A stretch of 63,005 bases of DNA, counting the filler, from Actinomycetota bacterium (lineage in GTDB: Bacteria; Actinomycetota; Acidimicrobiia; Spongiisociales; UBA4744), in NCBI GenBank assembly GCA_013152275.1. It is 6 parts of 5 records of this genome, joined end to end, with 100 filler letters (N's around TTAATTAATTAA, not from the genome) between each part and the next. Parts side by side here need not be neighbours in the genome. Positions count along the whole stretch, not along the records: positions 15,129 to 39,481 come from JAADGS010000016.1; 5 more parts are not named here. The stretch is one strand, 5' to 3'. How positions within the stretch are numbered: the stretch's first letter is position 1; every line of letters begins with the position of its first letter. The notes under the pieces were generated by a model. The model saw only the letters and a list, made by a program, of their open reading frames with translations, was not told where the DNA came from and ran no database searches. The position numbers and the translations under genes were made by a program. Positions 15,029-59,353 of the stretch are shown here, one piece after another.

Positions 15029-15128
15029 NNNNNNNNNNNNNNNNNNNNNNNNNNNNNNNNNNNNNNNNNNNNTTAATTAATTAANNNNNNNNNNNNNNNN
15101 NNNNNNNNNNNNNNNNNNNNNNNNNNNN
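15029..15128. other. Artificial contig spacer
   Basis: N-run with central TTAATTAATTAA, 100 bp. Confidence 0.98.
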
Positions 15129-16732: not shown

Positions 16733-17332
16733 ATGGTTAAACCAGGTGACCAAGATACATCTCGCAAGGACCGGATCCTGCGAGCGGCGGGGGAGTTGAT
16801 CGCCGAGGTCGGATGGGCCAACGTCACCACCCGGCTCATCTCCAAGCGGGCCGGCGTCAACAACGCGCTGATCCACTACTACTTCGGCACCAAAGACGAT
16901 CTGCTCCTCGAAGCGGCCTCTGCGGTGTTCGCCGCCGAGATCGAAGGGTCGCTGGCCGTGATCGAGGAGGCGGAGAGTTTCGCCGAGGTCCTCGAGGGTG
17001 TGTTCACATGGCTTCGCACGGTAGATGTGCACTCACCACTGATGGTGATCTCGATGGAAGCGATCCACCAGGCAGTCCGCGACGAACGTGTTGGAGCGTG
17101 GATCAGAGGAGTGTGGGGCGAGTACTTCGACGTGCTCGCCGGCGCCGTCGCCGCCGGCCAGGAGCGAGGAGAGATCCCGTCGTACGTCGATCCGAACGGC
17201 TTCGCCGTGATGCTCGGAGCACTGATCGACGGGCTCTCCCTCTACCGACTCGTCGAACTGGATTTCGACATCGAAAAGACGGCGGGTGTGATCGACGCAC
17301 TCGTCGAGGCTTTGACGAAAGGAACGCAGTGA
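16733..17332 (+). CDS. TetR-family transcriptional regulator
   Basis: ISKRAGVNNALIHYYFGTKDDL HTH. Confidence 0.9.
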   Translation: MVKPGDQDTSRKDRILRAAGELIAEVGWANVTTRLISKRAGVNNALIHYYFGTKDDLLLEAASAVFAAEIEGSLAVIEEAESFAEVLEGVFTWLRTVDVHSPLMVISMEAIHQAVRDERVGAWIRGVWGEYFDVLAGAVAAGQERGEIPSYVDPNGFAVMLGALIDGLSLYRLVELDFDIEKTAGVIDALVEALTKGTQ

Positions 17333-18033
17333 ACGTCATCGACCTGAAGAGCGTGACGAAAACCTTCGGCGAGGGACCGACGGCAGTCCATGCGCTCAAG
17401 AACATCGACCTCGACTTCCAGCAGGGAGAGTTCGTCGTAGTGCTCGGACCGAGTGGATCGGGGAAGACCACCCTGCTCAACGTGATCGGCGGCATCGAAG
17501 AGGTGACGTCCGGTGCACTGACCGTCGACGGGGTGAATCTCGTCGGGATGGATGAGGAGGAACGGACCGAGTTCCGGCGATCCCACGTCGGGTTCGTGTT
17601 CCAGTTCTTCAACCTCATCCCGACGCTTACCGCCCTGGAGAACGTGCAGCTCATGGCCGAACTCGTCGGGAGGAACCACGACGACAGCCTGGCTGCCCTC
17701 GAGGCCGTCAATCTGAGAGATCGTGCCGATCATTTCCCCGGCATGCTCTCGGGCGGCGAACAGCAGCGTGTCGCCATCGCACGTGCGCTCGTCAAACAAC
17801 CCCCGATTCTGCTGGTGGACGAGCCGACCGGTTCGCTGGACCTCGAGACGGGCCGCCAGGTCCTCGGACAGCTTCGGGCCGTCAGCGACAACGACCATCG
17901 GACCGTTCTGCTGGTTACCCACAACGCCGCCATCGGCGGGATGGGAGATCGGATCGTCCGACTGCATTCCGGCGAGCTGGCTTCGATCGAAGTCAACGCC
18001 AGGCCGCTGCTGCCCGACGAGGTGGAATGGTGA
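17329..18033 (+). CDS. ABC ATP-binding protein (LolD/MacB-like)
   Basis: GPSGSGKTT, FQFFNLIP, LSGGEQQRV, DEPTG; GTG start overlaps the TetR stop. Confidence 0.9.
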   Translation: MNVIDLKSVTKTFGEGPTAVHALKNIDLDFQQGEFVVVLGPSGSGKTTLLNVIGGIEEVTSGALTVDGVNLVGMDEEERTEFRRSHVGFVFQFFNLIPTLTALENVQLMAELVGRNHDDSLAALEAVNLRDRADHFPGMLSGGEQQRVAIARALVKQPPILLVDEPTGSLDLETGRQVLGQLRAVSDNDHRTVLLVTHNAAIGGMGDRIVRLHSGELASIEVNARPLLPDEVEW

Positions 18034-20384
18034 GCATTCTCGACCGCAAGCTGCGGAGAGACCTGAAGGCGAGACGAAGCCAGTTCATTGCCGTGGTGAT
18101 CACGATCGTGCTGGGGATCGTTCTCTTCGGCGGTTCGTACGACGCGTACCTGAACCTCACCGAATCGTACGACCAGATGTTTGTGATCCAAAACACGGCC
18201 GACATGACCATTTCCGGAGGCGATACGGAGGCCATCGTCGCCGCCGCGCGAAAGGTCGACGGTGTCGAGGACGTAGCCACACGATCCGTCGCGGAGGTTC
18301 CCCTCAGGATCGACGGCCACCACAAGATGCTGGGGCGACTCGTCGGGCTTCCTGGCGGAGCGCAGCCATCCATCGACAAGGTCACGGTGCTCTCCGGCAC
18401 ATACCTGAGTGGGATCGACTCCGTTTTGGTGGAACAACACATGGCCGACCACTTCAAGCTCAAAGCCGGCGACACGATCGAGGTGCTCGGCCCGCAGGGG
18501 TGGGTGAACGCTCGGGTTGCGGGTGTGGCGGCATCCGCCGAGTATCTGTGGCCTGCCCCCAGTCGCCAGCAGATCTTCCCATCGTTCGACGACTTCGGAG
18601 TCCTCTTCGTCGACCAGAACGTCTTCGCGGGGGTTCCGTCGTCCGTGGTCCGTCGAGAGGTGCTGGTCACCTACGCGTCGGGGACCGACACGGCCACCAT
18701 CGACCAGGCGCTGAAGGACGTGGCGCTCGCTCATGGTGCGACCGACGCGACACCGTTGGCGGATATTCCCTCCAACGCGGCGTTGAGCGAAGATCTGGCC
18801 GGGTTCCAGGAGATGTCGCTGATGTTCCCGCTGCTGTTCCTGGCGGCTGCCGGGATGGCGACATACGTGCTGCTCACCCGCCTCGTACTGTCCCAACGCG
18901 GCCAGATCGGTCTGTTGATGGCAAGTGGGTTCAGCAAGCGGACCATCTTCGGTCACTACCTGCGTTTCGGCCTGCTCGCCGGAGCGATCGGAGCCATCAT
19001 CGGAGCACCTCTCGGCGGGTTGCTGGGGCGTGAGATATCCAAGCTGTATACGGCGGCCATCTCGATACCAGTCACGGTGACGACCGCCCGTGTGTCGACG
19101 GCGGCGATAGGGGTCATCTTTGCCCTCGTTGCGGGTGCGCTGTCTGCGCTTGCCCCGGCGATGCGTGCCGCGAGGATCGCTCCTGCCCAGGCCATGCGGG
19201 GTCTGATTCCCTCCGGGAAGGGGGGAGCGACGTGGATCGAACGTCTGGTTCCGCCGTTGCGACGCCTCCCCGCGCGCTGGAAGTCGGTGCTACGCGGAAT
19301 CGGTCGGAATCGCAACCGGACGATATCGACGGTTGTGGGCGTCGTGCTCGCGGTGACCCTCATCCTGTCGTTCTGGGGCATGCTCGACTCGATCCAGGTG
19401 CTGATCGACCGTGAGTTCAACCAGGTCAACCGTCAAGACGCTCAGCTCTATCTGACCGCTCCGGTCACCCCGGACGTGCTTGCGCGAGTGGAGGCCGTCG
19501 GCGGTGTGGCACACGCAGAGCCGGTCACAGACGTGTCCGCCACGATTCGCGCCGGCTCAAAGCAATATCGCACGGACCTGCTGGGATTCAAACCGACGAC
19601 GAAACTCCACGGTTTCGTCGTCGACGGAAAGAATGTCGACCTGCCTTCGGACGGCGTCTTCCTCGGCTCATCGCTGAAGAGTCTGCTTGGCGTGGACGTT
19701 GGAGACGAGGTGACGATCGACGTTCCCGACCTCGGGATCACCGTGGCGGAGACGGTCGCCGGCTTCGTGAGGGAGCCGCTCGGAACCTTCGCGTACATCG
19801 CCGAGCCTCGCCTGGCCCAACTCGCCGGCACCAGTGACGTTGCGAACACGCTCTATCTGACGTTCGATCCGGGTGTCGACAGGGAAGCGTTGCGAGATCA
19901 ACTGAGTGAGCTGCCTTCGGTGGCGGCGTTCGTCGATTCGCAGGCGCTCAGGTCGATGGTGGACCAATTCATGGGACTGTTCTACGTGTTCGTCGGCATC
20001 ATGCTCGCTCTGGGCGGGATCATGGCGTTCGCGCTGATCTACAACACGATCTCGGCGAACATAGCGGAACGGGCATCCGAAGTGGCGATGATGCGCGCCG
20101 GCGGAGTGGGCCGCCGGACCATCTCGCGCATGCTCACCGCCGAGAATGTTCTGCTCACCCTCATCGGGGTGATCCCCGGGCTGATCGTCGGGTACATATT
20201 CGCCTACTACGGCGTGTCGATGTATTCGAGCGACATGTTCAAGTGGGATCTGTATATCCGGCCGACGACGTATGTGTTCACGGTGCTCGCCATCTTGCTG
20301 GCGGCGCTGCTGTCGCAACGACCGATCCTGCGGGAGGTGCAGCGTATCGATGTGGCGACCGTGGTGCGGGAACGATCGCTCTAA
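18027..20384 (+). CDS. FtsX-like ABC permease (duplicated domain)
   Basis: 785 aa with two periplasmic plus transmembrane repeats; coupled to the ATPase. Confidence 0.85.
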   Translation: MVSILDRKLRRDLKARRSQFIAVVITIVLGIVLFGGSYDAYLNLTESYDQMFVIQNTADMTISGGDTEAIVAAARKVDGVEDVATRSVAEVPLRIDGHHKMLGRLVGLPGGAQPSIDKVTVLSGTYLSGIDSVLVEQHMADHFKLKAGDTIEVLGPQGWVNARVAGVAASAEYLWPAPSRQQIFPSFDDFGVLFVDQNVFAGVPSSVVRREVLVTYASGTDTATIDQALKDVALAHGATDATPLADIPSNAALSEDLAGFQEMSLMFPLLFLAAAGMATYVLLTRLVLSQRGQIGLLMASGFSKRTIFGHYLRFGLLAGAIGAIIGAPLGGLLGREISKLYTAAISIPVTVTTARVSTAAIGVIFALVAGALSALAPAMRAARIAPAQAMRGLIPSGKGGATWIERLVPPLRRLPARWKSVLRGIGRNRNRTISTVVGVVLAVTLILSFWGMLDSIQVLIDREFNQVNRQDAQLYLTAPVTPDVLARVEAVGGVAHAEPVTDVSATIRAGSKQYRTDLLGFKPTTKLHGFVVDGKNVDLPSDGVFLGSSLKSLLGVDVGDEVTIDVPDLGITVAETVAGFVREPLGTFAYIAEPRLAQLAGTSDVANTLYLTFDPGVDREALRDQLSELPSVAAFVDSQALRSMVDQFMGLFYVFVGIMLALGGIMAFALIYNTISANIAERASEVAMMRAGGVGRRTISRMLTAENVLLTLIGVIPGLIVGYIFAYYGVSMYSSDMFKWDLYIRPTTYVFTVLAILLAALLSQRPILREVQRIDVATVVRERSL

Positions 20385-20385
20385 A

Positions 20386-20440
20386 CCCGTTCTCGTGACG
20401 CTTCGGTGGAACTATCCGGCCCAACCGTCACGAGAACGGG
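20386..20440. repeat. Palindromic repeat, family A
   Basis: CCCGTTCTCGTGACG-N25-CGTCACGAGAACGGG. Confidence 0.85.
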
Positions 20441-20484
20441 GGAGACTCTGCCACTTCCCCGCGCGGGATCAGTCGCGTTGGCGC

Positions 20485-21669
20485 TCATGTATGGCGGTGT
20501 CTCCATGCGCGCGTCTCGACATCGGACGGAGGCCCTGGCATCGCCGGCGGTTCGCGGTGCACGATCTCTGATCGGGCCCTGCGATTTCGCATGAGTTGCC
20601 GTACCCGGGAGGTGAGGATTCGTACCGGGTAGGGGCCTCCGGTGTCCGGGTGGCGGAAATCGAGATGGGACCTGGGCGGGAACAGGTTCGTGGCTATCCA
20701 GCGGAGCGCTTCCACTGTCCGGTCGGTGGTAAGAGCCGGCATCAGCAGGTAGCCGCGTCGCGCATACTCCGCAGTACTCGTCTCACCGAGAAGACGCGTC
20801 TTGGGACGCCACAGATAATCCCAGGCCCGCGCTCGCCATCCTTGCGGTCGAGGTATGTCCTCGGTGGGCAATCCCAGGGTGGAGAGCACAGCCGCGAGCG
20901 ACTTGTTGACGATGACCTCGAGGCCTTCGACCCGGGCCAGATCCTGAACGGCGTGCAGATCGGGCTCGGAGGAAACGATCCGAGCGATTTCCGCGTACGC
21001 AAGGAGGTAACGGAACCGGTCTCTGTTGATGTTGACGAGTCGATGAACGAGAGCGGTCTCGGAGTCGAGCACTCTGACGGATCCCCCAGAAGGGGTGTCG
21101 AGTTGCTGCGTCCGCTCCCACACCAGCCTGCTGGTGCGGGACGGGATGCCGAGCTTGAAGAGATCGAAGTGGACATCGATGCTCATGTCGTCCACCTCGA
21201 GTCCAAGCGCCTGAACCAGGCCGTAACGAAACAGTTCCTGGAAATGCCCGATGAGGGGGTGGTCCGGTGCGATGCAGGCCGCAATGTCGTCGGCTCGATC
21301 GAGTTCTGCAGGATCGATGAGAATATCGACGTCATGGCAGGGTCGCTCTCCGATCCGGTCGAACCAGCGAGCCTCGGCGGTGACCCCTTTGAACGCCGCG
21401 ATCTGAACACCGATTCCGGCGAGCCTGTCCGTCACATCCTCGAGAGCCTCCCAAAGATGCCGGTGGTGAGCTTCGTTCCGCAGAGTCAGCATTGCCAGAG
21501 TCCGTTCCCACTGCTCGTCGCCCTTCAGCTCCCCTGCTTCGGCCCGAGCCCAGAGCAGTCCGGTCATTCGATGCTCCACCGCCGACTCGAGGAGGCGGTC
21601 CGGATCTTCAACAACCGGCAGCGGTCGTCCGGCTGCGAGTTCGATGAGAGCAGGATGGGGGCGGGCCAT
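20485..21669 (-). CDS. Nucleotidyltransferase family protein (NTP_transf_5-like)
   Basis: FKG...R..HDVDIL and IDVH motifs; lies downstream of the PqqD gene. Confidence 0.8.
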   Translation of the reverse strand: MARPHPALIELAAGRPLPVVEDPDRLLESAVEHRMTGLLWARAEAGELKGDEQWERTLAMLTLRNEAHHRHLWEALEDVTDRLAGIGVQIAAFKGVTAEARWFDRIGERPCHDVDILIDPAELDRADDIAACIAPDHPLIGHFQELFRYGLVQALGLEVDDMSIDVHFDLFKLGIPSRTSRLVWERTQQLDTPSGGSVRVLDSETALVHRLVNINRDRFRYLLAYAEIARIVSSEPDLHAVQDLARVEGLEVIVNKSLAAVLSTLGLPTEDIPRPQGWRARAWDYLWRPKTRLLGETSTAEYARRGYLLMPALTTDRTVEALRWIATNLFPPRSHLDFRHPDTGGPYPVRILTSRVRQLMRNRRARSEIVHREPPAMPGPPSDVETRAWRHRHT

Positions 21670-21682
21670 GTGGGGTACGTCG

Positions 21683-21967
21683 CTATTCGGCTGTCGTGTC
21701 GATCTCGATGAGATCTCGTGTCGCCAGGTCCTCCAGGAACGAAGAGACATCATCTCCGAGGTCGGCGGGGGCGTCGCTCACGGCGGCGCGTGTTGCATCG
21801 GTCAGCTCGCCCACCGTCTGGCCATCGATGAGAGACCAGATCAGCGCTCCTATCGAATTGAACCCGTGGTAGCTGCCGGTCTCCAGGTTGAGGAGGACAC
21901 CTCCCTCCTGGGTGTCGCGATATGCAGCGTGGGGGGATTGCCGCACAATTGCCGTTTCAGGGATCAT
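21683..21967 (-). CDS. PqqD-family RiPP recognition element (lasso B1-like)
   Basis: 94 aa; VLLNLETGSYHGFNSIGALIWSLIDG...DVSSFLEDL. Confidence 0.9.
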   Translation of the reverse strand: MIPETAIVRQSPHAAYRDTQEGGVLLNLETGSYHGFNSIGALIWSLIDGQTVGELTDATRAAVSDAPADLGDDVSSFLEDLATRDLIEIDTTAE

Positions 21968-21988
21968 CAGGTCTCCTTCCGAAGATCG

Positions 21989-22843
21989 TCAGTACTGTCC
22001 AAAGGTCCCACGCCTGCGCTCACGTCGCAGAGCCAGATTCAGTGCGATGGCCCCGATGGTCAGGGAAAGCGCCGCGGCTCCGACGAAGATCCCGACATGA
22101 GGGGTGACTGCCCCCCATCCGGCACCGCCGAGGAGCGCCTGTCGCGTACCGTCGAACGCGAGAGCGATCGGATTCGCCCGGGCCAGGTCCTGTATCCAGC
22201 CAGGGAGCAGATCGACGGGGAAGTACGCGCCCGAGGAGAAGTTCAACGCAAGAGCGCCAAGGTTGAGAATCGTTGCACCTCTCCGGAACGTCATCACGCC
22301 TGCGGCGCTCACCATTCCGAGCCCCCACACGAACGGGATGAACAGGAGCAGGATGGCCAGTGAGGGCAGGATGCCCGATGGTGCGATTCCGATGTTGAAC
22401 AAGATCGACACGATGCCGATGAACAGGGCGGTACGTATCGGGACATACACGAGGTCGTAGACGGCAAGCCCGAATTGGAGGGTCATCGGATGTGTCGGAG
22501 TCATGAACAGTGAATCGAGGGTGCCCATCAGCTGCTCGGAGCGCATGGCCGTTGCAACCCGATCGAGCCCGAGCGTGAGAAACGCGCCCAGAGCGATACC
22601 GATCGTCACGAAAGCCAGATAGCTTGCACGCTGGCCGCCGTACTCGGGGATCTTGCTCGGATCGACCATCAACCCGATGAAGTAGAACATCACGATCTGC
22701 ACCGCAAGCCCCACTGCGTCGCCGAAGAAGGCCATCCGGTAGCTCCACGCGGTGAGAAAATCTCGCCGTATGAACGCAGGGAGCTTTCTCACTTCGAGGA
22801 GGAATCTGGCTCCCACCGCAGGGACCGTGTCAGGAGAGGTCAT
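21989..22843 (-). CDS. ABC-2 type exporter permease
   Basis: RDFLTAWSYR, SGAYFPVDLLPGW, multiple transmembrane segments. Confidence 0.85.
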   Translation of the reverse strand: MTSPDTVPAVGARFLLEVRKLPAFIRRDFLTAWSYRMAFFGDAVGLAVQIVMFYFIGLMVDPSKIPEYGGQRASYLAFVTIGIALGAFLTLGLDRVATAMRSEQLMGTLDSLFMTPTHPMTLQFGLAVYDLVYVPIRTALFIGIVSILFNIGIAPSGILPSLAILLLFIPFVWGLGMVSAAGVMTFRRGATILNLGALALNFSSGAYFPVDLLPGWIQDLARANPIALAFDGTRQALLGGAGWGAVTPHVGIFVGAAALSLTIGAIALNLALRRERRRGTFGQY

Positions 22844-23789
22844 CGGTACTCTCAGCGGTGAGTGTGAGGAACGCTTCTTCGATCTCGGGTCGGGCCTCGC
22901 GGCAGGCCAACACGGGGAGCCCGGCGGACGCCAGCGAGCCGATGACGTCACCAAGTACCGTTCCGTTCCTGAGTCGAAGGAGATACTCCTCTCTTGCGGC
23001 CCCTTCGAGAGGGACGAGTGTCCCAAACGAAGCGATCATCTGCTCGAGATCATCCGCAGAAGAGGTGTGCTCGCCGAGACGAATGACGTACGAACGTTCG
23101 TTCGCCAACGCCATCAACTGATCGACTGATCCCTGGAAGCGCACTCCGGTCGTGCCGAGCACGGTCACCGTGTCGGCGAGGCCGGGAAGCTCGTCGAGGC
23201 GGTGTGTAGCCCAGATGACACCGGCTCCTCGCCCGGCGGCGTCCTTCGCCACCTGGTGGATCTTCGCGGCACCACTCGGATCGAGTTCGTGGGTCGGTTC
23301 ATCGAACAGGAGGAGTTGTGGATCGGTGAGAAGAGCTCTGGCAATGGCGACACGCTTCTGCATGCCGTGCGAGTACAAGCCCGAGCGAATATGCATGGCA
23401 TCGTCGAGCCCGACTTCCCGCATGAGCTCGCCGGCTCGCCGGGTGGCATCACGCCGGTTCATGCCGTGCAGACGGGCGAAGAATACGAGGTTCTCGTAGC
23501 CGGAGATGCGCAGATAGAGTGACCTGTCTCCGGAGGGTACCCACCCGATACGCTCGCGCACCCATGCGGAACGTGGGCTCCCACCGAGGATACTCACGGT
23601 TCCTCTGCTTGGCTCGATCAGACCTGCGATCGTTCGCAGCAGTGTGGTCTTGCCGACCCCGTTGGGCCCGATCAGGGCATGGATCTCTCCGGGTGCCGTG
23701 TCGAAACTGACGTCACGGAGAATGGTCCTGGACTTGAACCTACGCCATATAGATCGAACCTCGACCACTGGAGTCGAGGTTCGAAACAT
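22830..23789 (-). CDS. ABC exporter ATP-binding protein
   Basis: GPNGVGKTT, YSHGMQKRV, DEPT. Confidence 0.9.
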   Translation of the reverse strand: MFRTSTPVVEVRSIWRRFKSRTILRDVSFDTAPGEIHALIGPNGVGKTTLLRTIAGLIEPSRGTVSILGGSPRSAWVRERIGWVPSGDRSLYLRISGYENLVFFARLHGMNRRDATRRAGELMREVGLDDAMHIRSGLYSHGMQKRVAIARALLTDPQLLLFDEPTHELDPSGAAKIHQVAKDAAGRGAGVIWATHRLDELPGLADTVTVLGTTGVRFQGSVDQLMALANERSYVIRLGEHTSSADDLEQMIASFGTLVPLEGAAREEYLLRLRNGTVLGDVIGSLASAGLPVLACREARPEIEEAFLTLTAESTDDLS

Positions 23790-23831
23790 TGCAGCACACT
23801 CTCCTGAGGGAAAGGTTTCTATTCCGTTTCC

Positions 23832-23954
23832 TTAGGAGTGGTGGCAACCGTCGTACTGTTGGAACGTAAGCAGTCTCGGCTTACAGTCCCCTGGCATGAA
23901 CGTGTGTTCCGCGATCGAACCGAAGTCCTTGATCTGAGGGGTCTCGTACTTCAC
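23832..23954 (-). CDS. RiPP precursor peptide with a lasso-type leader, 40 aa: MKYETPQIKDFGSIAEHTFMPGDCKPRLLTFQQYDGCHHS
   Basis: Hand-translated and absent from the ORF track; GGGAGG RBS 7 nt before GTG; YxxPx(I)xxxGxxxxxT leader motif; first gene of the ABC-RRE-NTase operon. Confidence 0.88.
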   Translation of the reverse strand: MKYETPQIKDFGSIAEHTFMPGDCKPRLLTFQQYDGCHHS

Positions 23955-23997
23955 CTTGCAGCCTCCCATTGCCCGCATAGCTTCCCTCTGCCCGGGC

Positions 23998-24027
23998 AGG
24001 CTATCATTGCCACTGTGGGTGCGTCAA
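23998..24027 (-). promoter_or_regulatory. Putative promoter of the precursor operon: TTGACG-N18-TAGCCT with extended TG
   Basis: Read on the minus strand, ending 43 nt upstream of the precursor start. Confidence 0.45.
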
Positions 24028-24447
24028 GGACCACCATCATGTCACGCAGAGTGTTTAGCCCGGTTCGTCGGTGAGACGCAAAGGCTGCCGATCGGGATCA
24101 CCGGGAGGTCACGGTGGGCGCGATTGCCGTGTCGTCGGGAGTCGGCGGCCCGATCGTGATTCTCCAGGTGGCCGTTGACTTGTCGCCGGCTCCCTGTCTG
24201 GGAGAGGTAGTGCAAACCGTCACTGTGAGGTGTTGTCGGTGCGTAGCGAATGACGTCCCTTCGTCGATGCGCCAGGGAGGGCCAACTACCCTGGACTCCG
24301 GAAATGGATTCTCGATACCGACTTCCGGAGGAAAGGGGTCGACCGTGATCTCGTGGCGCAGCAGCTCGAGAGTGAGGAGTCCTCTGTGAAGGGTCGGCAC
24401 ACGCTCAACTTTCTGGTATCTGTTCCCGCATTCCTCGACTTGTGGCG

Positions 24448-25380
24448 ATGACCGACACGCAAACATCAGCGCCTTCGAGCGGGACGTGTTTCGGGTACGA
24501 GGCTCACTCCGATATCCCCTTTCGGTTCCTTCGCGACGGCGTGGGTGAGCCGCTTGAGGTCATGTTCCACTCCGAAGAAGGCCCGGAACCGGGCGAGCGG
24601 CTCGTTGTGGACTGGAAACGGCGGCCGGACAAGTCCTTCTACGGTCGGGTCTATCAGAACGATCAGGGACGGTATCGGCTGTGGACGAGTGACGCCGGCT
24701 GGTTCCTGGTCGATCCCCGGAAGAGGACGATAGCCATTTCCGAACATGGCGACTCGTTGAGGCGAGAGGTCCGGCTCTGGACGACGCCGATGCTGCTGCT
24801 GATGGTCGGTCGGGGCGACCTGCCGTTGCACGCCTCCGCCGTGGAGGTGGACGGTGGGGCGGTCCTGTTCGGCGGGCCGAGCCAGTTCGGTAAGACGACA
24901 CTCGCGGCGGCATTCCATACCGCAGGTTTCCGAGTGCTGGCCGAGGACATCACCTGCGCGCAGGTTGGGGATGATGTGGCAGTGATACCTGGCCCGGCGC
25001 TCCTCAGGGTTCGCCATGATGTCGCAGATCGCTTCGCGACTTCGAGTGTCGCCGATGCGGGTCAGGACGATGAACGCAGATTCCTGGCCCTCTCCGAGGA
25101 ATCTCGTGGCACTTGTGATCCGTTGCCCCTCAAAGGGATCGTGCTGCTCAAGAGCGATGCCCCGGCCATCCGCCTGGATCGGCGCGTGGGGACTCGATCC
25201 ATCAGCGATCTCTGGGAGCTTGCCTTTCGACTGCCGGGCGATGAGGAGATCGAGCGGGTCTTCAACGGCATCACCGATCTCGCGGATCGGGTGCCCGTGT
25301 GGGATCTCGTGCGTCCTTTGGATGTCGAGCAGCTCCTGCCGACGGTGGAGCGAGTCGTCGAGAAGGTGAGAGGGTCGTGA
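24448..25380 (+). CDS. HPr-kinase-like P-loop kinase (lasso-cluster kinase type)
   Basis: [17 protein letters not shown] Walker A, VLAEDI. Confidence 0.8.
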
Positions 25381-25793
25381 GTTCGAACGAATCCCCCGGA
25401 TTGCCCATGGCAGAGAAGGTGAGGCTGTTCGTTCGAATATGGGTGTTGGCCGGGCTGTCCGCGACCGCATCGAAACGGCGCGCCCTTCCCGACCTCATGG
25501 AGAGCTATCGGATCGCGGGCACGGTCGGAAGCCATTCGACCTACGCTCCCCGCAAGCTGAGCAGAGCGGTCACCCGCAGTCTCCGTGTTGGTCGTTGGCA
25601 GCCGCGGTGCCTGATCAAGGCGATGGTGCTCTACCGGCTGATGCGAGAACAGGGCGAAGAAGTCGAACTCGTGATCGGCCTTCCACAGAATCCGAAGGAT
25701 CACATCGCCCATGCCTGGGTCGAGCTGCATGGTGTCGACATCGGTCCCGCACCCGGTCGTGGAGGCCACGAGGAGATCGCGCGCTACGGCTGA
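25377..25793 (+). CDS. Lasso B2-type transglutaminase-like leader peptidase
   Basis: [10 protein letters not shown]...LVIG...AHAWVE (catalytic Cys and His). Confidence 0.88.
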
Positions 25794-25804
25794 TCCCCCC
25801 TCAA

Positions 25805-25859
25805 CCCGTTTTCGTGACGGTTCGGCGGGATTATCCGGCTCCAGCGTCACGAGAACGGG
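25805..25859. repeat. Palindromic repeat, family A
   Basis: CCCGTTTTCGTGACG...CGTCACGAGAACGGG. Confidence 0.85.
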
Positions 25860-25882
25860 GGGATTGGGCCTACGATGCCCCG

Positions 25883-32767: not shown

Positions 32768-32834
32768 TTTCTTCCCGTTCTCGTGACGGTTGAGCGGGAC
32801 TATCCGGGCGAAGCGTCACGAGAACGGGAAGAAA
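32768..32834. repeat. Palindromic repeat, family A (extended arms)
   Basis: TTTCTTCCCGTTCTCGTGACG...CGTCACGAGAACGGGAAGAAA. Confidence 0.85.
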
Positions 32835-32897
32835 CGGGGATGTGTGGAGTTTGATGAGCCTGCTGACTACTCTCCGTGGCAGATCCTCAGGGGGACC

Positions 32898-34730
32898 GTG
32901 AGCGAAAACACACTGACCGAGCCGACGCTGTTCAGCGCCGCCTGGCGCTATCGGTGGCTGGTGGTTGCCACGACGGTGTTGGCGCTGGCGCTGGGCATTG
33001 TGTTCGTGACGCTCAATCCTGCGAAAACCGTCTACACGGCGCGGGCGTCGATGGTCGTCCAGGCCACGGCCGGGGGCCTGGATCTCGGAACATCGGGAAG
33101 TCCGCAGCGGTTCGTTGCAAACCAGGTGGAGATCCTCAGGTCGGCGGCGGTCTCCGATCTCGCGAGTCGGATCGCCGAGCAGGAGGATCCGCCGATCGCT
33201 CTGGCGCCGGAGGACATCGCCGGCGGCCTGCAGGTCGAGAGCTCTTCGAGCAGCGACCTGATCGATGTCGTCTTCAGCGCAGTGGACGATCCTGCCGTGG
33301 CCGTCGGGGGTGCCAACGCGGTGGTCGCGGCCTACAAGCAACTCGTGACTTCGGAGAAGACCGCAGTGACGAGCGCCGCCCTCCAACGGATCGACGCTCA
33401 ACTGGCGACGCTCGATGAACGGGCGCAGACGATCGCAGGTCAGATCGCGGAGAAACTGGACGAGGACACGGCGCTGATAGATCTGCGGAAGCAGTATGAA
33501 GATGCGGTCGTCGAGATCGTATCGCTCCAAGGCGAAGCCCAGACGGCCGACGCCACTCGACTCGCCGAGATCCGTGCTCGCCTCGGCGACCTGCGCAACC
33601 TGATCGCAACCTACCGGAGCATCCGGAGTATCGGCCGAGATGATCCCGTGCTCGATGAGCTCCAGGCCGAACAGGAGCAGATCCTCGCGCGCAGAGACGC
33701 CTTGTTGGAGCGTCGCGACACGATATCGATCGACGTCGAGTTGTCTCCCGACGTCGTCGCGTTCTCTTCACCCGCACAAGTGGCGATGCCGTCGCCCGAC
33801 TCGGGACCGGGGCGTGTACTGGCGGTCGCAATCATGATGGGTCTGCTCGGTGGAGTTGGTCTCGCCTACTTGTTCGCTTCCCGGCTGCACGTGTTTCATG
33901 ATCGCATGGAGCCGCAGATGATTCTCGGCGCGCCGCTGCTTGCCGACATACCCGATTTCACGCAGGAAGGCCTCAGGACGCTCCTGCCCGTTCGGGACGA
34001 GCCACGTTCGGCATCGGCGGAGGCGTTCCGATTTGCTGCAGCCTCGTTGGAATTGAAGATGACAAGGCAGAATGCGAAGTCGCTCGTGATCATCTCCCCG
34101 ACACTCGGTGCGGGCAAGAGCACGGTGCTGGCGAATGCGGCACTTGCGGCGGCCAGGCAAGGAAACCGAGTGCTCCTCATCGATGCGGATTTCGGAAACC
34201 AGGCACTTACGGAGCTCTTGGCCGGTGATGAAGGCACGCTGGAACCCGGTTTGACGGAGGTCGTGGGCGAGGGCCTTTCCCTCGATCGGGCCATCCGCAA
34301 GATCGAGGTTGGGCCTGATCTGTTGCTCTCACTTCTGAGCAGGGGCCGACAGCCGGTCGCTGCGGCGGATCTGCTCAGGTCCAGCGCGGCTCGATCACTT
34401 TTCGACACCGCCAAGGAGGAGTACGACCTGGTGCTCGTCGACGCTCCGCCACTGCTCCAGGTCGCCTACGCGAGCACGCTGGCCGGCCTCGTCGATACCG
34501 CTCTGGTACTCGTGGCTCACGGGGGCTCGACCTCCCAGCTCGAAGAGGCGAGGAGTCGTCTGAGCCTCATCGGAGTGCCGATCCTCGGCTATGTCTACAA
34601 CGGGTCGCCGCTCCGGAGAGAGATGACGGTTTCGGAAGGCTCGACCGCCGACGTGCTCGGAGATATGGCTGGGCCGAGAAGCAGGGGCGAGAAGAGCAAG
34701 TCCGGTTTCGGCAAGAGGCGGCAGCGCTGA
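32898..34730 (+). CDS. Polysaccharide co-polymerase / BY-kinase (Wzc-like)
   Basis: Two transmembrane segments flanking a coiled coil; GAGKS, LLIDAD, VDAPP. Confidence 0.8.
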   Translation: MSENTLTEPTLFSAAWRYRWLVVATTVLALALGIVFVTLNPAKTVYTARASMVVQATAGGLDLGTSGSPQRFVANQVEILRSAAVSDLASRIAEQEDPPIALAPEDIAGGLQVESSSSSDLIDVVFSAVDDPAVAVGGANAVVAAYKQLVTSEKTAVTSAALQRIDAQLATLDERAQTIAGQIAEKLDEDTALIDLRKQYEDAVVEIVSLQGEAQTADATRLAEIRARLGDLRNLIATYRSIRSIGRDDPVLDELQAEQEQILARRDALLERRDTISIDVELSPDVVAFSSPAQVAMPSPDSGPGRVLAVAIMMGLLGGVGLAYLFASRLHVFHDRMEPQMILGAPLLADIPDFTQEGLRTLLPVRDEPRSASAEAFRFAAASLELKMTRQNAKSLVIISPTLGAGKSTVLANAALAAARQGNRVLLIDADFGNQALTELLAGDEGTLEPGLTEVVGEGLSLDRAIRKIEVGPDLLLSLLSRGRQPVAAADLLRSSAARSLFDTAKEEYDLVLVDAPPLLQVAYASTLAGLVDTALVLVAHGGSTSQLEEARSRLSLIGVPILGYVYNGSPLRREMTVSEGSTADVLGDMAGPRSRGEKSKSGFGKRRQR

Positions 34731-34749
34731 AACTCCTCGTTGTCATGGA

Positions 34750-35928
34750 GTGGCTGTGGATCCGTTGACGGTGCTGCAAATCCACAATCGCTACCGGGAA
34801 GCCGGGGGCGAAGACGTGGTCACATCGAAGGAACGCGCTCTCCTCAGAGAGGCCGGCCACGAAGTGATCGACTACCAGGTCGAGAATCCGCGCGGCCCTG
34901 TCGCTGCAACCGCGAGCTTGCTCGTATCGCCGTGGAATCCGATGTCGGCCCGGCGTGTCGGTGACGCCGTCAGACGGCATCGTCCCGACGTAGCCCACAT
35001 TCACAACACGTGGTGGGCGCTGTCTCCTTCGATCGTGCGCTCCCTCTCGAAGGCCGGGGTTCCGACCGTCATGACGTTGCACAACTACCGGCTCGTTTGT
35101 GCCAACGGGAAGCTGTTTCGCGACGGTGAGCCGTGTGAGGACTGTGTGGGCACGCATCCATGGCGGGCGGTCGGTCACGGGTGTTATCGGGGTTCGGTGC
35201 CGGCGTCGATCATGGCTGCGGCCGCCATCGAGCTGCCCCGGAGGCTGCATGCGTGGCAGGGGGTGGATCTCTTTCTGCCACTCACCGACTTTGCTCGCGA
35301 GCGGTTCATCGCAGGTGGGCTGTCGTCCGACAAGCTGTGGGTCAAGCCGAACTTCGTGGACGATCCCGGACCGCGCCGCGTGCGTCCGTCCGAGAGCGGC
35401 GTGGTGCTGTTCGTCGGGAGACTGAGCGCCGAGAAGGGGATCGAGGTCCTGCTCGACGCCTGGCGAAACGCTGCGCCGCGGCGTCTCGAGCTTGTCGTTG
35501 TGGGCGATGGTCCGCTCCGGCAGGCCCTCGAAGCCTCTCCGCCTGCGGGTGTGCGGTTCCTCGGCCGGCAGCCCGTCGACCAGGTCCGCGAACTCATGCT
35601 CGGTGCACGCGCCATGGCGTTCCCTTCTCTCTGGTTCGAGGGTCAGCCGATGGTGTTGCTCGAGGCACTGGCCGCGGGCGTGCCGCTCGTTGTGTCGGCG
35701 CTAGGCGGGATTCCCGACACGGTCGCCGATGGGAGGGCGGCTCTCGCAGTGCCGGCGGGTGATCGATCTGCTTGGGCCGCGGCGTTGGGTCGGCTGGCCG
35801 GCGACGATTGGCTCGATGCGGCGAGCGGGTATGCGCGACGCGTGTTCGAGTCCCGCTACAGCCCGCACCTTGCCCTGGATGCGCTCGAGGAGGCGTACAG
35901 GAGGGCGATGGGGGATCGGGGACACTGA
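34750..35928 (+). CDS. Glycosyltransferase family 4
   Basis: HNRYREAGGED, FVGRLSAEKG, EGQPMVLLEA. Confidence 0.88.
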   Translation: MAVDPLTVLQIHNRYREAGGEDVVTSKERALLREAGHEVIDYQVENPRGPVAATASLLVSPWNPMSARRVGDAVRRHRPDVAHIHNTWWALSPSIVRSLSKAGVPTVMTLHNYRLVCANGKLFRDGEPCEDCVGTHPWRAVGHGCYRGSVPASIMAAAAIELPRRLHAWQGVDLFLPLTDFARERFIAGGLSSDKLWVKPNFVDDPGPRRVRPSESGVVLFVGRLSAEKGIEVLLDAWRNAAPRRLELVVVGDGPLRQALEASPPAGVRFLGRQPVDQVRELMLGARAMAFPSLWFEGQPMVLLEALAAGVPLVVSALGGIPDTVADGRAALAVPAGDRSAWAAALGRLAGDDWLDAASGYARRVFESRYSPHLALDALEEAYRRAMGDRGH

Positions 35929-35929
35929 G

Positions 35930-36730
35930 TCAGGTCGTCGTGTCGCGTGCCAATCTGGCGCGCACGATGTCTCTGGCGAGGAGTGCCAGGTACGCCGGGT
36001 TGTTGAACAGATATCGGCGCCAAAGCCTGCGGGGGTGCAGGGAGAGGCGGTGAAGCCACTCCAGACCGGCCGACTGCATCCAGGCAGGAGAGCGCGGCGT
36101 CGTTCCGGCGATGAAGTCGAACGCCGCTCCGACACCGAGGAGCGCGACGCCGGGCACCAGGTGGCGGATGCCGCGCATCCACAGTTCCTGTTTCGGCATA
36201 CCCAAGCCCACCCAGACGAGGTCGGCCCCGGATTCCTTGATCTGCTCTGCGGCGATCCGGACGTCGTCATCGGTGGGGGTTCGAAACGGTGGTGAAAAGC
36301 TTCCGGCGATGCTCACTCCGGGAGCAATTCTCCGGGTGGCCTCGACCAGCTTGCCGAGGGTCTCCTCGGTGCTTCCGTAGAAGAAGTGACTCCACCCGTG
36401 CACGACACCGTGCTGGAGGGCGCGCTGCATGAACGATGGTCCGTCGACTCTGTCTTGCCCGGTACGCCCGGCCGCGCGGAGCCCCCACACGACAGGCATC
36501 CCGTCGGGGGTCGCTATGTCTGCGTCGAGCAGTGCGGAGGCGACCGACGGATCGCTGCGAGCCGTCATTACCGAATGTACGTTGCAGAAGGCGACGACCG
36601 TTGCCTTGTCCGTTGGGCGGTTCTGCAGCAGGTCGAGGACTTCGTCGCCGGAGGTGGCCGAGATCGGTGTCCCGACCACGCTGATCCGATCGGGCCAGAC
36701 GGTGCTCACGGGCGCCGGTGCTCCTGCCAC
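35930..36730 (-). CDS. WecB/TagA/CpsF-family glycosyltransferase
   Basis: [25 protein letters not shown]. Confidence 0.9.
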
Positions 36731-37644
36731 CAGGCGATGGTCTTGCGCAGCCCCTCCTCGAGGTCGACCTGAGCTTCGAATCCGAAGTACTCCTTGGCGC
36801 GCGTGGTATCCAACATCCGTCGGGGCTGACCGTCCGGCTTGGTGGCGTCCCAGTGGACCTCTCCCTCGTAGCCTGTCAGGTTGGCGATCAGAGCCACGAG
36901 ATCGCGAATGATGATCTCACGGCCGCTACCGATGTTGACCGGCTCGGCGCCGTCGTACGCCTCGGTGGCAAGGACGATCGCGCGCGCCGCGTCTTCCACG
37001 TAGAGGAACTCCCGGCCGGCAGATCCGGTTCCCCACACGTCGACATGCGGCGCTCCGGTTTCGCGGGCGTCGACGAACTTGCGGATGAGTGCCGGAATGA
37101 CATGGCTGGTCTCCGGATCGAAGTTGTCTCCGGGTCCGTAGAGGTTCACGGGAAGCAGGTAGACGCCGTTGAAGCCGTACTGATCTCTGTATGCCTGCAA
37201 CATGACGAGGAGTGATTTCTTGGCGACGCCATACGGAGCGTTGGTCTCCTCCGGGTAGCCGTTCCACAGGTCCTCCTCTTTGAACGGCACCGGTGTGTAT
37301 TTCGGATAGGCGCAGACGGTCCCGAGCTGCACGAGTTTCTCGACGCCGACCCGGCGGCTCTCCTCGATCACGTTGATGCCCATGGCCGCGTTGGCGTAGA
37401 AGTAGCGTCCCGGGTTGGCCCGGTTGGCACCGATGCCACCCACTTCTGCCGCAAGATGCAACACGACGTCGGGTCGAACGTCGGTCATGAGATCCCGAAC
37501 GGTCTGTTGATCGGTCAGGTCATGGTCGGCGTGGCGGGGAACCATCAGGTCGATGGGGCGGCGGCGGAGAAGGTCACAGATGTACGAGCCCAGGAAACCG
37601 GCACCGCCGGTCACCATGACCCGCTTGCCTTTCAGTTCGGTCAC
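36706..37644 (-). CDS. fcl: GDP-L-fucose synthase
   Basis: [40 protein letters not shown]. Confidence 0.92.
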
Positions 37645-38684
37645 TCGGGTCTCCCGTTGCGCCACTCGATCTGCTTGAGGCCCGCGTCGACCAGGGTCCG
37701 CTCCTGCTTGGCCAACTCGAGGTCCGAGTCGATCATCATGCGCACCAGGTCCGGGAATTCCACCTTCGGTTCCCAACCGAGAACTCGGCGAGCTTTGGAG
37801 GCGTCGCCCTGGAGGATGTCGACTTCGGCCGGTCGCAGGTATCGCTCGTCGATACGCACGTGATCACGAAAATCGAGGTCGAGCAGCCCGAATGCCGCCT
37901 CGCAGAATTCACGTACCGAATGCCGTTCGCCCGTGGCGATCACATAGTCGTCGGGAAGATCCTGCTGGAGCATCAGCCACATGGCCTCCACGAAGTCCCC
38001 GGCGAATCCCCAGTCGCGCTCTGCGTCGAGATTGCCGAGGAAGACGTAGTCCTGAAGCCCGAGCTTGATGCGGGTCGCCGCCCGGGTGATCTTGCGGGTC
38101 ACGAACGTCTCGCCCCTTCTGGGCGACTCGTGATTGAAGAGAATCCCGTTGCCGGCGAAGAGGCCGTACGCCTCGCGGTAGTTGACCGTCTGCCAGAACG
38201 AGTACACCTTCGCGACGCCGTACGGGCTCCGCGGATGAAACGGCGTTCGTTCTGTCTGCGGGGTTTCCGCAACCTTCCCGAACATCTCGGATGAGGACGC
38301 CTGGTAGAAGCGCACCGGTGATCCGAGCTGCCGGATGGCTTCCAGCAGCCGCAGTGTGCCTATCGCATCGATGTCTGCCGTGTAGATGGGGTTCTTGAAG
38401 GAGACGCCCACGTGGGACTGGGCGCCGAGGTTGTAGATTTCGGTCGGTTCGATGTGCTGAAGGAGATGGACGAGGCTGTTGCCGTCGGCCAGGTCGCCGT
38501 AATGCAGGAACAGGTTCGCCGATTCGCTGTGAGGGTCGATGTAGAGATGGTCGATCCGTTCGGTTGCGAATGTGCTCGAACGGCGGATCAGCCCGTGTAC
38601 TTCGTACCCGCGACCAAGCAGGAACTCGGTGAGGTACGATCCGTCCTGTCCGGTGATTCCGGTGATGAGCGCACGCCCCAGCAA
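37641..38684 (-). CDS. gmd: GDP-mannose 4,6-dehydratase
   Basis: [43 protein letters not shown] before TTG. Confidence 0.95.
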
Positions 38685-39093
38685 AACATACCTCCCACCA
38701 CGCGTCGTTTTCAACCACTTAGCGTAGTTCGTGGTGGGGGAGGGCGCAACGGTTGATCAGTCGATCCGAGTTGGGCTCTGCTCCACGGTTCTTGTAGAGC
38801 TCGATCGGCACGCCTCGTCGTGGGAGAAGCACTCTCCGTCGATCGTCTGTCTCCTCGATCTCGGCTCCGACAGGCACATGTTTCCGATTCCGACGAGACC
38901 GGCCTATGGTGAGCCTGCGCACATCATCACTGGGAAGGGGCGGCTGTGCGGCTCAAGCGAGGGGGCACGCATGGTGCCGGTTCCCGTCACTACAAACCCA
39001 AGCATCGATCCAACACCGGAATCGGGTTCGATGCTCTGCGTCTGAAGATCGTTGGAGGTCGACGACGGATCGGCTTGTGGCCGGTTCACAGAT

Positions 39094-39481: not shown

Positions 39482-39581
39482 NNNNNNNNNNNNNNNNNNN
39501 NNNNNNNNNNNNNNNNNNNNNNNNNTTAATTAATTAANNNNNNNNNNNNNNNNNNNNNNNNNNNNNNNNNNNNNNNNNNNN
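39482..39581. other. Artificial contig spacer
   Basis: N-run with TTAATTAATTAA. Confidence 0.98.
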
Positions 39582-42918: not shown

Positions 42919-43018
42919 NNNNNNNNNNNNNNNNNNNNNNNNNNNNNNNNNNNNNNNNNNNNTTAATTAATTAANNNNNNNNNNNNNNNNNNNNNNNNNN
43001 NNNNNNNNNNNNNNNNNN
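42919..43018. other. Artificial contig spacer
   Basis: N-run with TTAATTAATTAA. Confidence 0.98.
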
Positions 43019-54913: not shown

Positions 54914-55013
54914 NNNNNNNNNNNNNNNNNNNNNNNNNNNNNNNNNNNNNNNNNNNNTTAATTAATTAANNNNNNNNNNNNNNNNNNNNNNNNNNNNNNN
55001 NNNNNNNNNNNNN
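54914..55013. other. Artificial contig spacer
   Basis: N-run with TTAATTAATTAA. Confidence 0.98.
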
Positions 55014-59253: not shown

Positions 59254-59353
59254 NNNNNNNNNNNNNNNNNNNNNNNNNNNNNNNNNNNNNNNNNNNNTTA
59301 ATTAATTAANNNNNNNNNNNNNNNNNNNNNNNNNNNNNNNNNNNNNNNNNNNN
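59254..59353. other. Artificial contig spacer
   Basis: N-run with TTAATTAATTAA. Confidence 0.98.

Follow-up and report, generated by a model that had tools for sequence, protein, structure and literature searches.

We analysed a 63,005-nucleotide stretch of DNA from an Actinomycetota bacterium (Acidimicrobiia, Spongiisociales, UBA4744; GenBank assembly GCA_013152275.1), hereafter the window, which contains a lasso-like gene cluster for a peptide made on ribosomes and modified after translation (RiPP) whose macrolactam cyclase gene has been deleted. The window consists of several contigs joined at runs of N (15029-15128, 39482-39581, 42919-43018, 54914-55013 and 59254-59353), and gene neighbourhoods outside 15129-39481, the contig that carries the whole locus (C86), therefore do not represent real synteny. 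The genome of the locus (G000) is rated 100% complete and that of its congener G001 99%. DNA of the cluster is contained in hydrothermal-vent metagenomes, the best-matching of which may be its source. The first-pass annotation had described two divergent operons with seven genes, and family scans recovered all of them where they had been placed. Together with two remnants of a cyclase gene, they are arranged as follows:

20485..21669, minus: nucleotidyltransferase (NTase, PsmN/LppN-like), 394 aa; PF14907 (NTP_transf_5), E 2e-21
21683..21967, minus: discrete RiPP recognition element (RRE, or B1; PqqD family), 94 aa; PF05402, E 2e-15
21989..22843, minus: ABC-2 type permease of an ATP-binding cassette (ABC) transporter, 284 aa; PF01061
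22830..23789, minus: ABC ATPase (DrrA-like), 319 aa; PF00005, with TIGR01188 below cut-off
23832..23954, minus: precursor, 40 aa, with a predicted 19-aa leader and 21-aa core MPGDCKPRLLTFQQYDGCHHS at 23897-23835
24114..24227, plus: 5' stub, covering residues 1-38 of the deleted cyclase (begins at a GTG with GGAGG), 45% identical to residues 1-38 of cyclase P0121
24278..24451, plus: 3' stub, comprising the last 57 codons of the deleted cyclase and not in frame with the 5' stub
24448..25380, plus: HprK-related kinase, 310 aa; TIGR04352, E 1e-7, below cut-off
25377..25793, plus: B2 leader peptidase (transglutaminase-like), 138 aa; NF033537 above cut-off, PF13471

The NTase retains its DxD motif (HDVD), and its start was set at 21669 because the congener open reading frame (ORF) begins there; a PDB sequence search with this protein gave no significant match. 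The catalytic Cys (PRC) and His (HAWVE) of B2 are intact, and the protein matches the family hidden Markov model (HMM) over its full length. In the kinase, whose start was corrected to the ATG at 24448, the His (HASAV), Walker A (GPSQFGKTT) and AED motifs are intact and correspond to invariant alignment columns. The RRE is the only PqqD match in G000, B2 is likewise single in the genome, and a family precursor HMM matched the 40-aa precursor alone.

The precursor start was corrected to GTG 23954, which has GGAGG upstream. Its leader, YETPQI...G...HTF, follows a YxxPxI...G...T-F pattern, with the YxxPx[LIV] motif and the Thr at -2 of lasso leaders and a T-[FY] motif that recurs across family precursors; the match to the lasso-precursor model NF033528 is weak (E 0.037). 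Cleavage after Thr-Phe is predicted from the lasso Thr(-2) rule. The resulting core carries Cys5, Cys18 and a C-terminal Ser, its only Ser. As had been noted in the first-pass annotation, it lacks a lasso ring acceptor: positions 7-9 are P, R and L in G000, and N, H and S in G001, with no Asp or Glu. In the ESM Atlas, the precursor matched nothing but unnamed clusters, at values below 0.9.

Internal deletion of the cyclase gene

The locus had initially been called uninterrupted and free of any asparagine-synthetase-like ORF. No intact Asn-synthase ORF is indeed present, but the sequence separating precursor and kinase is matched by cyclases from related clusters. An HMM made from the cyclases of related loci matched 24278-24445, corresponding to model positions 537-592 of 592 (genome-wide E 1.6e-7), and a search of longer proteins with the 3' stub returned a single protein, P0121 (602 aa, PF00733, 70% identity), residues 542-601 of which align at 24266-24445 (68% over 60 aa; genome-wide E 4.5e-18). 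The match of P0121 residues 1-38 to 24114-24227 is weak, with E 2e-4 when the 500-nt gap alone is searched, 0.02 for the window and 0.98 genome-wide, while the corresponding stub of the congener is 53% identical to P0121 (E 5e-6). The family cyclase HMM did not match the 5' stub, which is detected by the close relative P0121 alone, and its extension to about residue 54 was made by eye only. About 1,471 nt of the cyclase gene are missing, and the TGA of the 3' stub overlaps the kinase ATG.

Both ends of the gene are thus still in place and most relatives carry the whole gene, from which we conclude that the cyclase of this locus was lost by internal deletion. The loss is old and common to the congener G001, which has 86% nucleotide identity over the cluster, the same right-hand junction and all other cluster genes intact. 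An assembly artefact at the junction was ruled out, as contigs from two other runs, both of one study (X2, record 7, and X3, record 13), span the junction, which is also present in the congener. Outside the G000/G001 pair, the nearest kinase is P0003; it is 74% identical and is listed, like P0121, on a 19,816-nt contig of the same source; the two are most likely neighbours, in a sister lineage that keeps the whole cyclase gene. An independent cyclase-free class that never derived from a deletion is the least probable explanation we considered: versions free of cyclase remnants exist elsewhere (loci L100 and L187), but for this locus the idea is refuted by the two cyclase ends, and the probable linkage of P0003 to the intact P0121 also speaks against it.

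The genome-wide PF00733 search recommended in the first-pass annotation returned three weak N-terminal matches in G000, and genome-wide searches found no cognate cyclase in G000 or G001, the two genomes for which this absence has been established. One match is an orphan 597-aa AsnB-like protein with an SGGYDS motif on contig C70 (L029: 433-2226; PF00733 E 5e-6), which also weakly matches the lasso-cyclase HMM NF033535 (28.6 bits); the others resemble MnmA and GMP synthase when their sequences are read by eye. That the C70 protein closes a ring on this peptide in trans is very unlikely, and it was rejected as a candidate. It is only 25-28% identical to family cyclases, over the N-terminal half; its 3.4-kb contig has no RiPP neighbours (no precursor, RRE or B2); it has no match in either of two congeners, among them G001, which carries the same cluster; and the core has neither the canonical acceptor nor the one found in the family.

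Selection was estimated by a counting method as the ratio of nonsynonymous to synonymous substitution rates (dN/dS) between G000 and G001. The ratios were 0.28 for the NTase, 0.09 for the RRE, 0.09 for the permease, 0.21 for the ATPase, 0.22 for the kinase, 0.26 for B2 and 0.23 for the leader, and 0.09-0.28 for flanking genes, compared to 0.88 for the 3' stub and 0.96 for the 5' stub (Fisher p 2e-6 pooled; 0.002 for the 3' stub versus the kinase). In 102 close pairs of intact clusters, the last 57 cyclase codons had a median dN/dS of 0.235 and a maximum of 0.53, and the intact-cluster kinases had a median of 0.22, equal to that of the G000/G001 kinase. With a dN of about 0.2-0.4, the stubs have diverged at a neutral ratio, whereas the other genes, some 1,540 codons, have remained open and constrained in G000 as well as in G001; this indicates that the cyclase has been dead for most of the time since the two genomes split (dS about 0.25-0.45). 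The remaining cluster genes are under purifying selection and are as constrained as in intact clusters. The initial proposal of a coherent cyclase-free pathway in place of a simple deletion therefore survives in part: with no cognate cyclase in either genome and purifying selection on the other genes, the pathway most likely works without a cyclase, but both gene ends show that a deletion gave rise to it.

Core peptides and the family of intact relatives

Loci were counted as related when their kinase match spanned 250 aa or more, giving 165 after removal of three duplicates. A cyclase of at least 400 aa is present in 107 of them and a partial match of 70-399 aa, mostly at contig ends, in 20; neither precursor nor cyclase was found in 28, mostly short contigs. 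The remaining ten were scored cyclase-free, and one of these (L153), whose cyclase is cut by a contig end, was reassigned, leaving nine. In a count of neighbourhoods as suggested at the outset, the cyclase is present in 53 of the 59 loci that extend more than 6 kb to either side; being kin, the loci are not independent of one another. Among the related loci, L056 has the exact gene order of the studied locus with its cyclase intact. Parent-type clusters number more than 100 loci, mostly in uncultured Actinomycetota and also in Chloroflexota and Gemmatimonadota. Precursor, RRE, B2, kinase and AsnB-like genes, with or without NTase and ABC genes, make up L021, L026, L036-L039, L053-L056 and most of L058-L207.

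Asp or Glu at core positions 7-9 occurs in only 19 of 81 distinct cores from cyclase-bearing loci (shuffled mean 27). The missing acceptor had been taken to support a coherent cyclase-free pathway; this argument fails because cyclase-bearing relatives lack it too, and what has been lost here is the Glu of a different motif. K-x9-15-E-x-S is found in 73 of the 81 cyclase-linked cores (shuffled mean 2.2, maximum 8), with the Lys mostly 12-14 residues before the Glu, and in none of 16 cores from the nine cyclase-free loci. Five of the eight misses have D-x-S, D-E-S or E-x-T; in another the Lys and Glu lie further apart, and the last two are cores of L086. Before counting, the misparsed L158 and one 63-aa ORF of L192 were dropped, and a read-through ORF of L106 fell under the cyclase-length filter. 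Cys is the commonest residue at position -1 relative to the Glu (31/73), and the number of Cys in cyclase-linked cores, exactly two or four in 67 of 81 and odd in none, fits disulfides. Comparison of the cores with and without a cyclase suggests that the Lys and Glu are likely the substrate residues of the parent lasso-cyclase homologues, and the Ser the likely kinase target.

The studied locus combines neither a K-x9-15-E-x-S core nor a full cyclase. Aligned to the family, its core reads Cys(-1)-His(0)-His-Ser(+2), position -13 being Lys, so that the Glu is lost and the Ser kept. Five precursors are available at genus level, this one and four homologues, and their leaders are nearly identical. 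Cys5 and the terminal Cys-x-x-Ser are kept in four of the five, around a hypervariable, unalignable loop, and the same four have lost the family Glu, its position being occupied by His in G000 and G001, Gly in P0124 and Gln in P0125. Only the fifth precursor, P0126, has the Glu; it has no Cys, ends in E-P-S and has Lys at -13.

On a quick version of the kinase tree, with L153 set aside, cyclase-free loci fall in four separate places. L094, sister to the intact L104, has its own internal cyclase deletion, an independent in-frame event at a short repeat common to the cyclase N- and C-terminal regions (L094:1308-1511), with its right junction at model position 537-541, about the same as in the window. 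The L094 core has lost the Lys and changed Glu to Gln, and keeps the Ser and two Cys. This deletion may be recent, since the stub has a dN/dS of 0.2 over 42 codons compared to L104; given the constrained stub and other strong PF00733 matches in its genome, L094 does not support long survival without a cyclase.

From these patterns, we tentatively propose, at somewhat less than even odds, that the intact relatives form an undescribed family in which a lasso-cyclase homologue would link the side chain of an internal Lys to that of a Glu lying 12-14 residues further downstream, the product being a side-chain-to-side-chain lactam whose N- and C-terminal tails are free, and in which the kinase would phosphorylate the Ser two residues after the Glu. 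The studied locus may then represent one RiPP class turning into another, a disulfide of near-equal span replacing the lactam, with L094 as a second such event.

Several other related loci differ in their make-up. L086 (13452-13735) has a cyclase of the same family beside canonical Gly1-Asp8 lasso cores, and the same cyclase clade therefore includes probable true lasso cyclases. L100 (7637-12337) and L187 (6160-11093) contain complete precursor-ABC-RRE-kinase-B2-NTase clusters without any trace of a cyclase over about 20 kb; two Cys are present in the L100 core, and that of L187 is a poly-Arg/Lys stretch. In genus g3 of the same family (L022:8158-10263, L023, L024, L025 and L027), two precursors, an RRE and a kinase lie beside leuS in loci that lack B2, NTase and cyclase genes, and several cores share C-x-x-G-G-S-G. 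The g3 mini-clusters and L100 were not accepted as cyclase-free genome-wide: genome G007 has a full cyclase cluster elsewhere, B2 occurs elsewhere in G009 and G016, and AsnB-like genes in G009 and G693. In L025 (3091-5101), a 381-aa AsnB-like protein without the N-terminal domain lies beside two more precursors with Gly/Asp-rich cores.

A proposed cyclase-free pathway and its surroundings

Given the observed gene set, the deletion, the neutral drift of the stubs, the purifying selection on the other genes and the conserved Cys...Cys-x-x-Ser frame, we infer with a probability of roughly 60% that the locus encodes a working cyclase-free RiPP pathway, born by internal cyclase deletion from a parent cluster with seven enzyme genes, and that its product is a disulfide-looped, Ser-phosphorylated and perhaps hexosylated peptide. 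By analogy with characterized homologues, the RRE would bind the YxxPxI leader and the kinase would (poly)phosphorylate the C-terminal Ser21 on the linear precursor, as PadeK-type kinases, according to the available text of PMC9266682, act on the C-terminal Ser of the linear precursor before cyclisation. The NTase may be needed for adding one or more hexoses to the Ser phosphate, PsmN being described as required for hexose on the phosphate (PMC6993621, in the text available). B2 would then cut after Thr-Phe and the ABC-2 pump export the core. After export, Cys5 and Cys18 may oxidise to a 14-residue disulfide loop replacing the parent lactam; as this span is about that of the parent Lys(-13)...Glu(0) pair, the disulfide could take over ring closure. 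That a cyclase-free kinase pathway works is indicated by the linear polyphosphorylated peptides (LPPs), as far as the text of PMC13381572 goes. The hypervariable loop under a near-identical leader might, as a guess, point to a strain-specific signal or antagonist.

The pathway may also work and yield another product, for instance one in which the thiols of the Cys/His-rich end stay free or bind metal, or in which the NTase adds a nucleotide and does not enable hexosylation. The C-H-H-S terminus of the cores in G000 and G001, the unresolved chemistry of NTP_transf_5 and the presence of other cyclase-free lineages with no or one Cys would agree with this. We regard it as quite unlikely, as the His residues are not kept in P0124 and P0125, whereas both Cys and the Ser are, and the even Cys counts of the cyclase-linked cores fit disulfides.

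Several observations weigh against a working pathway with a disulfide-looped product. The kinase has no obvious Shine-Dalgarno sequence and the stubs upstream of it are out of frame in G000, so that it may have lost translational coupling; G001 retains an in-frame fused mini-ORF from the stubs. The locus encodes no disulfide oxidoreductase, and no product of LppN could be seen in the LPP study (PMC13381572, in the text available). The cyclase status of the P0124-P0126 loci is assumed, the genus loci inspected being this one and that of G001, and the dN/dS values come from one genome pair, with stubs of only 57 and 37 codons. Some of these points would suit a dying cluster, one that lost its cyclase, makes no useful product and whose other genes lag in decay. 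The visible deletion and the out-of-frame stubs ahead of a kinase without a clear ribosome-binding site are in line with such decay, as are the dN/dS of the NTase and B2 (0.28 and 0.26), which lie in the upper range compared to DinG (0.09) and FtsX (0.16), the absence of a kinase match in the congener G002, and a contig of run X6 that lacks 20530-25605, showing that some strains lose nearly the whole cluster. We nevertheless consider a dying cluster unlikely, because the stubs drifted neutrally while both genomes kept the other codons open and constrained, the dN/dS of the kinase is the same as the intact-cluster median, and the Cys and Ser positions are fixed in the cores.

On either side of the cluster lies a copy, in direct orientation, of a high-copy palindromic repeat, which folds into a long hairpin and is a probable terminator or boundary:

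20384..20442, no strand assigned: palindromic (repetitive extragenic palindrome-like, REP-like) repeat, left copy
25801..25862, no strand assigned: palindromic repeat, right copy, in direct orientation relative to the left copy and 86% identical to it

The repeat is genome-wide, with about 100 BLAST matches in G000 (both arms counted), and is abundant in G001 and G002 too. Excision of the cluster could be mediated by these flanking copies. Joints between repeat copies were seen in run X6, and these may merely be other copies of the repeat.

The genes on both sides had been described as unrelated to the cluster. Downstream this holds, the neighbour being a DinG-like helicase, but upstream it is less clear. 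There, directly adjoining the cluster, a TetR regulator, a LolD-like ATPase and a double-FtsX permease lie at 16733-20384, syntenic in G001, and a permease 46% identical to the FtsX permease also adjoins the related cluster L021; the transporter may be linked to the cluster, in export or immunity. Polysaccharide genes (Wzz/AAA_31, GT4, WecG and GDP-mannose dehydratase) lie 7 kb downstream on the same contig, at 32790-38714, and LPP and paeninodin clusters are reported to be located near capsule loci. A hairpin at 23780-23835, lying between the stop codon of the precursor and the start of the ATPase gene (z -2.2; 9 of 200 shuffles as good), is a weak candidate for an attenuator favouring precursor mRNA. 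A scan of the locus for sigma-70 promoters and terminators found none, and no RNA data sets were among the listed sequencing runs matching cluster DNA.

Comparison with known systems

The locus keeps the RRE (B1) and the Cys protease B2 of lasso peptide clusters (PF05402, PF13471, NF033537). With paeninodin and pseudomycoidin, as described in the available text of PMC6993621 and PMC9266682, it has in common the precursor, B1, B2, the ABC exporter and the marks of that subtype, namely an HprK-like kinase, NTP_transf_5 and a core with C-terminal Ser. It differs from them in having no intact AsnB-like macrolactam cyclase, only stubs, and no Asp or Glu at core positions 7-9, so that no lasso is expected, and the cluster is not a lasso peptide cluster.

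The parent cores likewise differ from the lasso-type cores of paeninodin and pseudomycoidin, and the parent cyclase P0121 scores far below the NCBIfam lasso-cyclase cut-off (122 bits versus 525). A structural model of the parent cyclase of L104 (predicted local distance difference test score, pLDDT, 94.9) matches TsnB9, beta-lactam synthetase and AsnB with template-modelling (TM) scores of 0.56-0.70. The SGGxDS PP-loop is conserved in the parent cyclases, which are probably not glutamine-dependent, since 89 of 95 full-length sequences have no Cys near the N-terminus. Compared to other AsnB-fold amide synthetases, their cognate cores have no acceptor at 7-9 and, at core positions 19-36, show Lys-x9-15-Glu-x-Ser in its place; of such a synthetase, the studied locus keeps stubs only. 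If Lys-Glu side-chain lactams are indeed formed, this would be chemistry that we did not find described for lasso-cyclase homologues, and a possible peptide-stapling tool. Neither B2-retaining cyclase-deleted clusters nor K...E-x-S cores were found in the open-access literature, main texts being covered and supplements lying outside the scope, so that LPP Supplementary Data 2 and Fig. S23 could hold such clusters; the available text of PMC7470986, PMC12710340, PMC8692599 and PMC13352647 does not mention them.

The closest resemblance in working is to the LPPs of Bacillota (lppA-K-B-S-D-N), peptides with a kinase, an NTase and an RRE but no cyclase (Popov et al. 2026, PMC13381572, from the text available), and the new peptide class announced by the first-pass annotation is overstated for its cyclase-free part. 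Both systems have a YxxP leader, a stand-alone RRE and an HprK-like kinase, besides an NTP transferase and an ABC exporter, and both lack a macrolactam cyclase. The studied cluster is not an LPP member. Its peptidase is a lasso B2 in place of SpI/SipW, and a family scan at the locus found no signal-peptidase match among its proteins; its exporter is an ABC-2 pair, compared to an MsbA-like protein; and its predicted phosphorylation site is the C-terminal Ser, whereas that of LPPs is Ser at core position 3. Of the LPP leader consensus YxxPxVLxHQxIxFETxxS, only YxxP is common to this locus, which is further set apart by two conserved Cys, a probable Acidimicrobiia host and a visible origin by cyclase deletion. 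According to the same LPP paper, gene turnover has erased the origin of cyclase-free phosphopeptide pathways. At the studied locus this origin is still readable, in the ends of the deleted gene, in a sister lineage where the gene is most likely still whole, and in selection on both sides of the loss. The idea of a cyclase-free pathway thus has precedent, while its readable birth by deletion, and the pointer it gives to a large parent family, are unusual.

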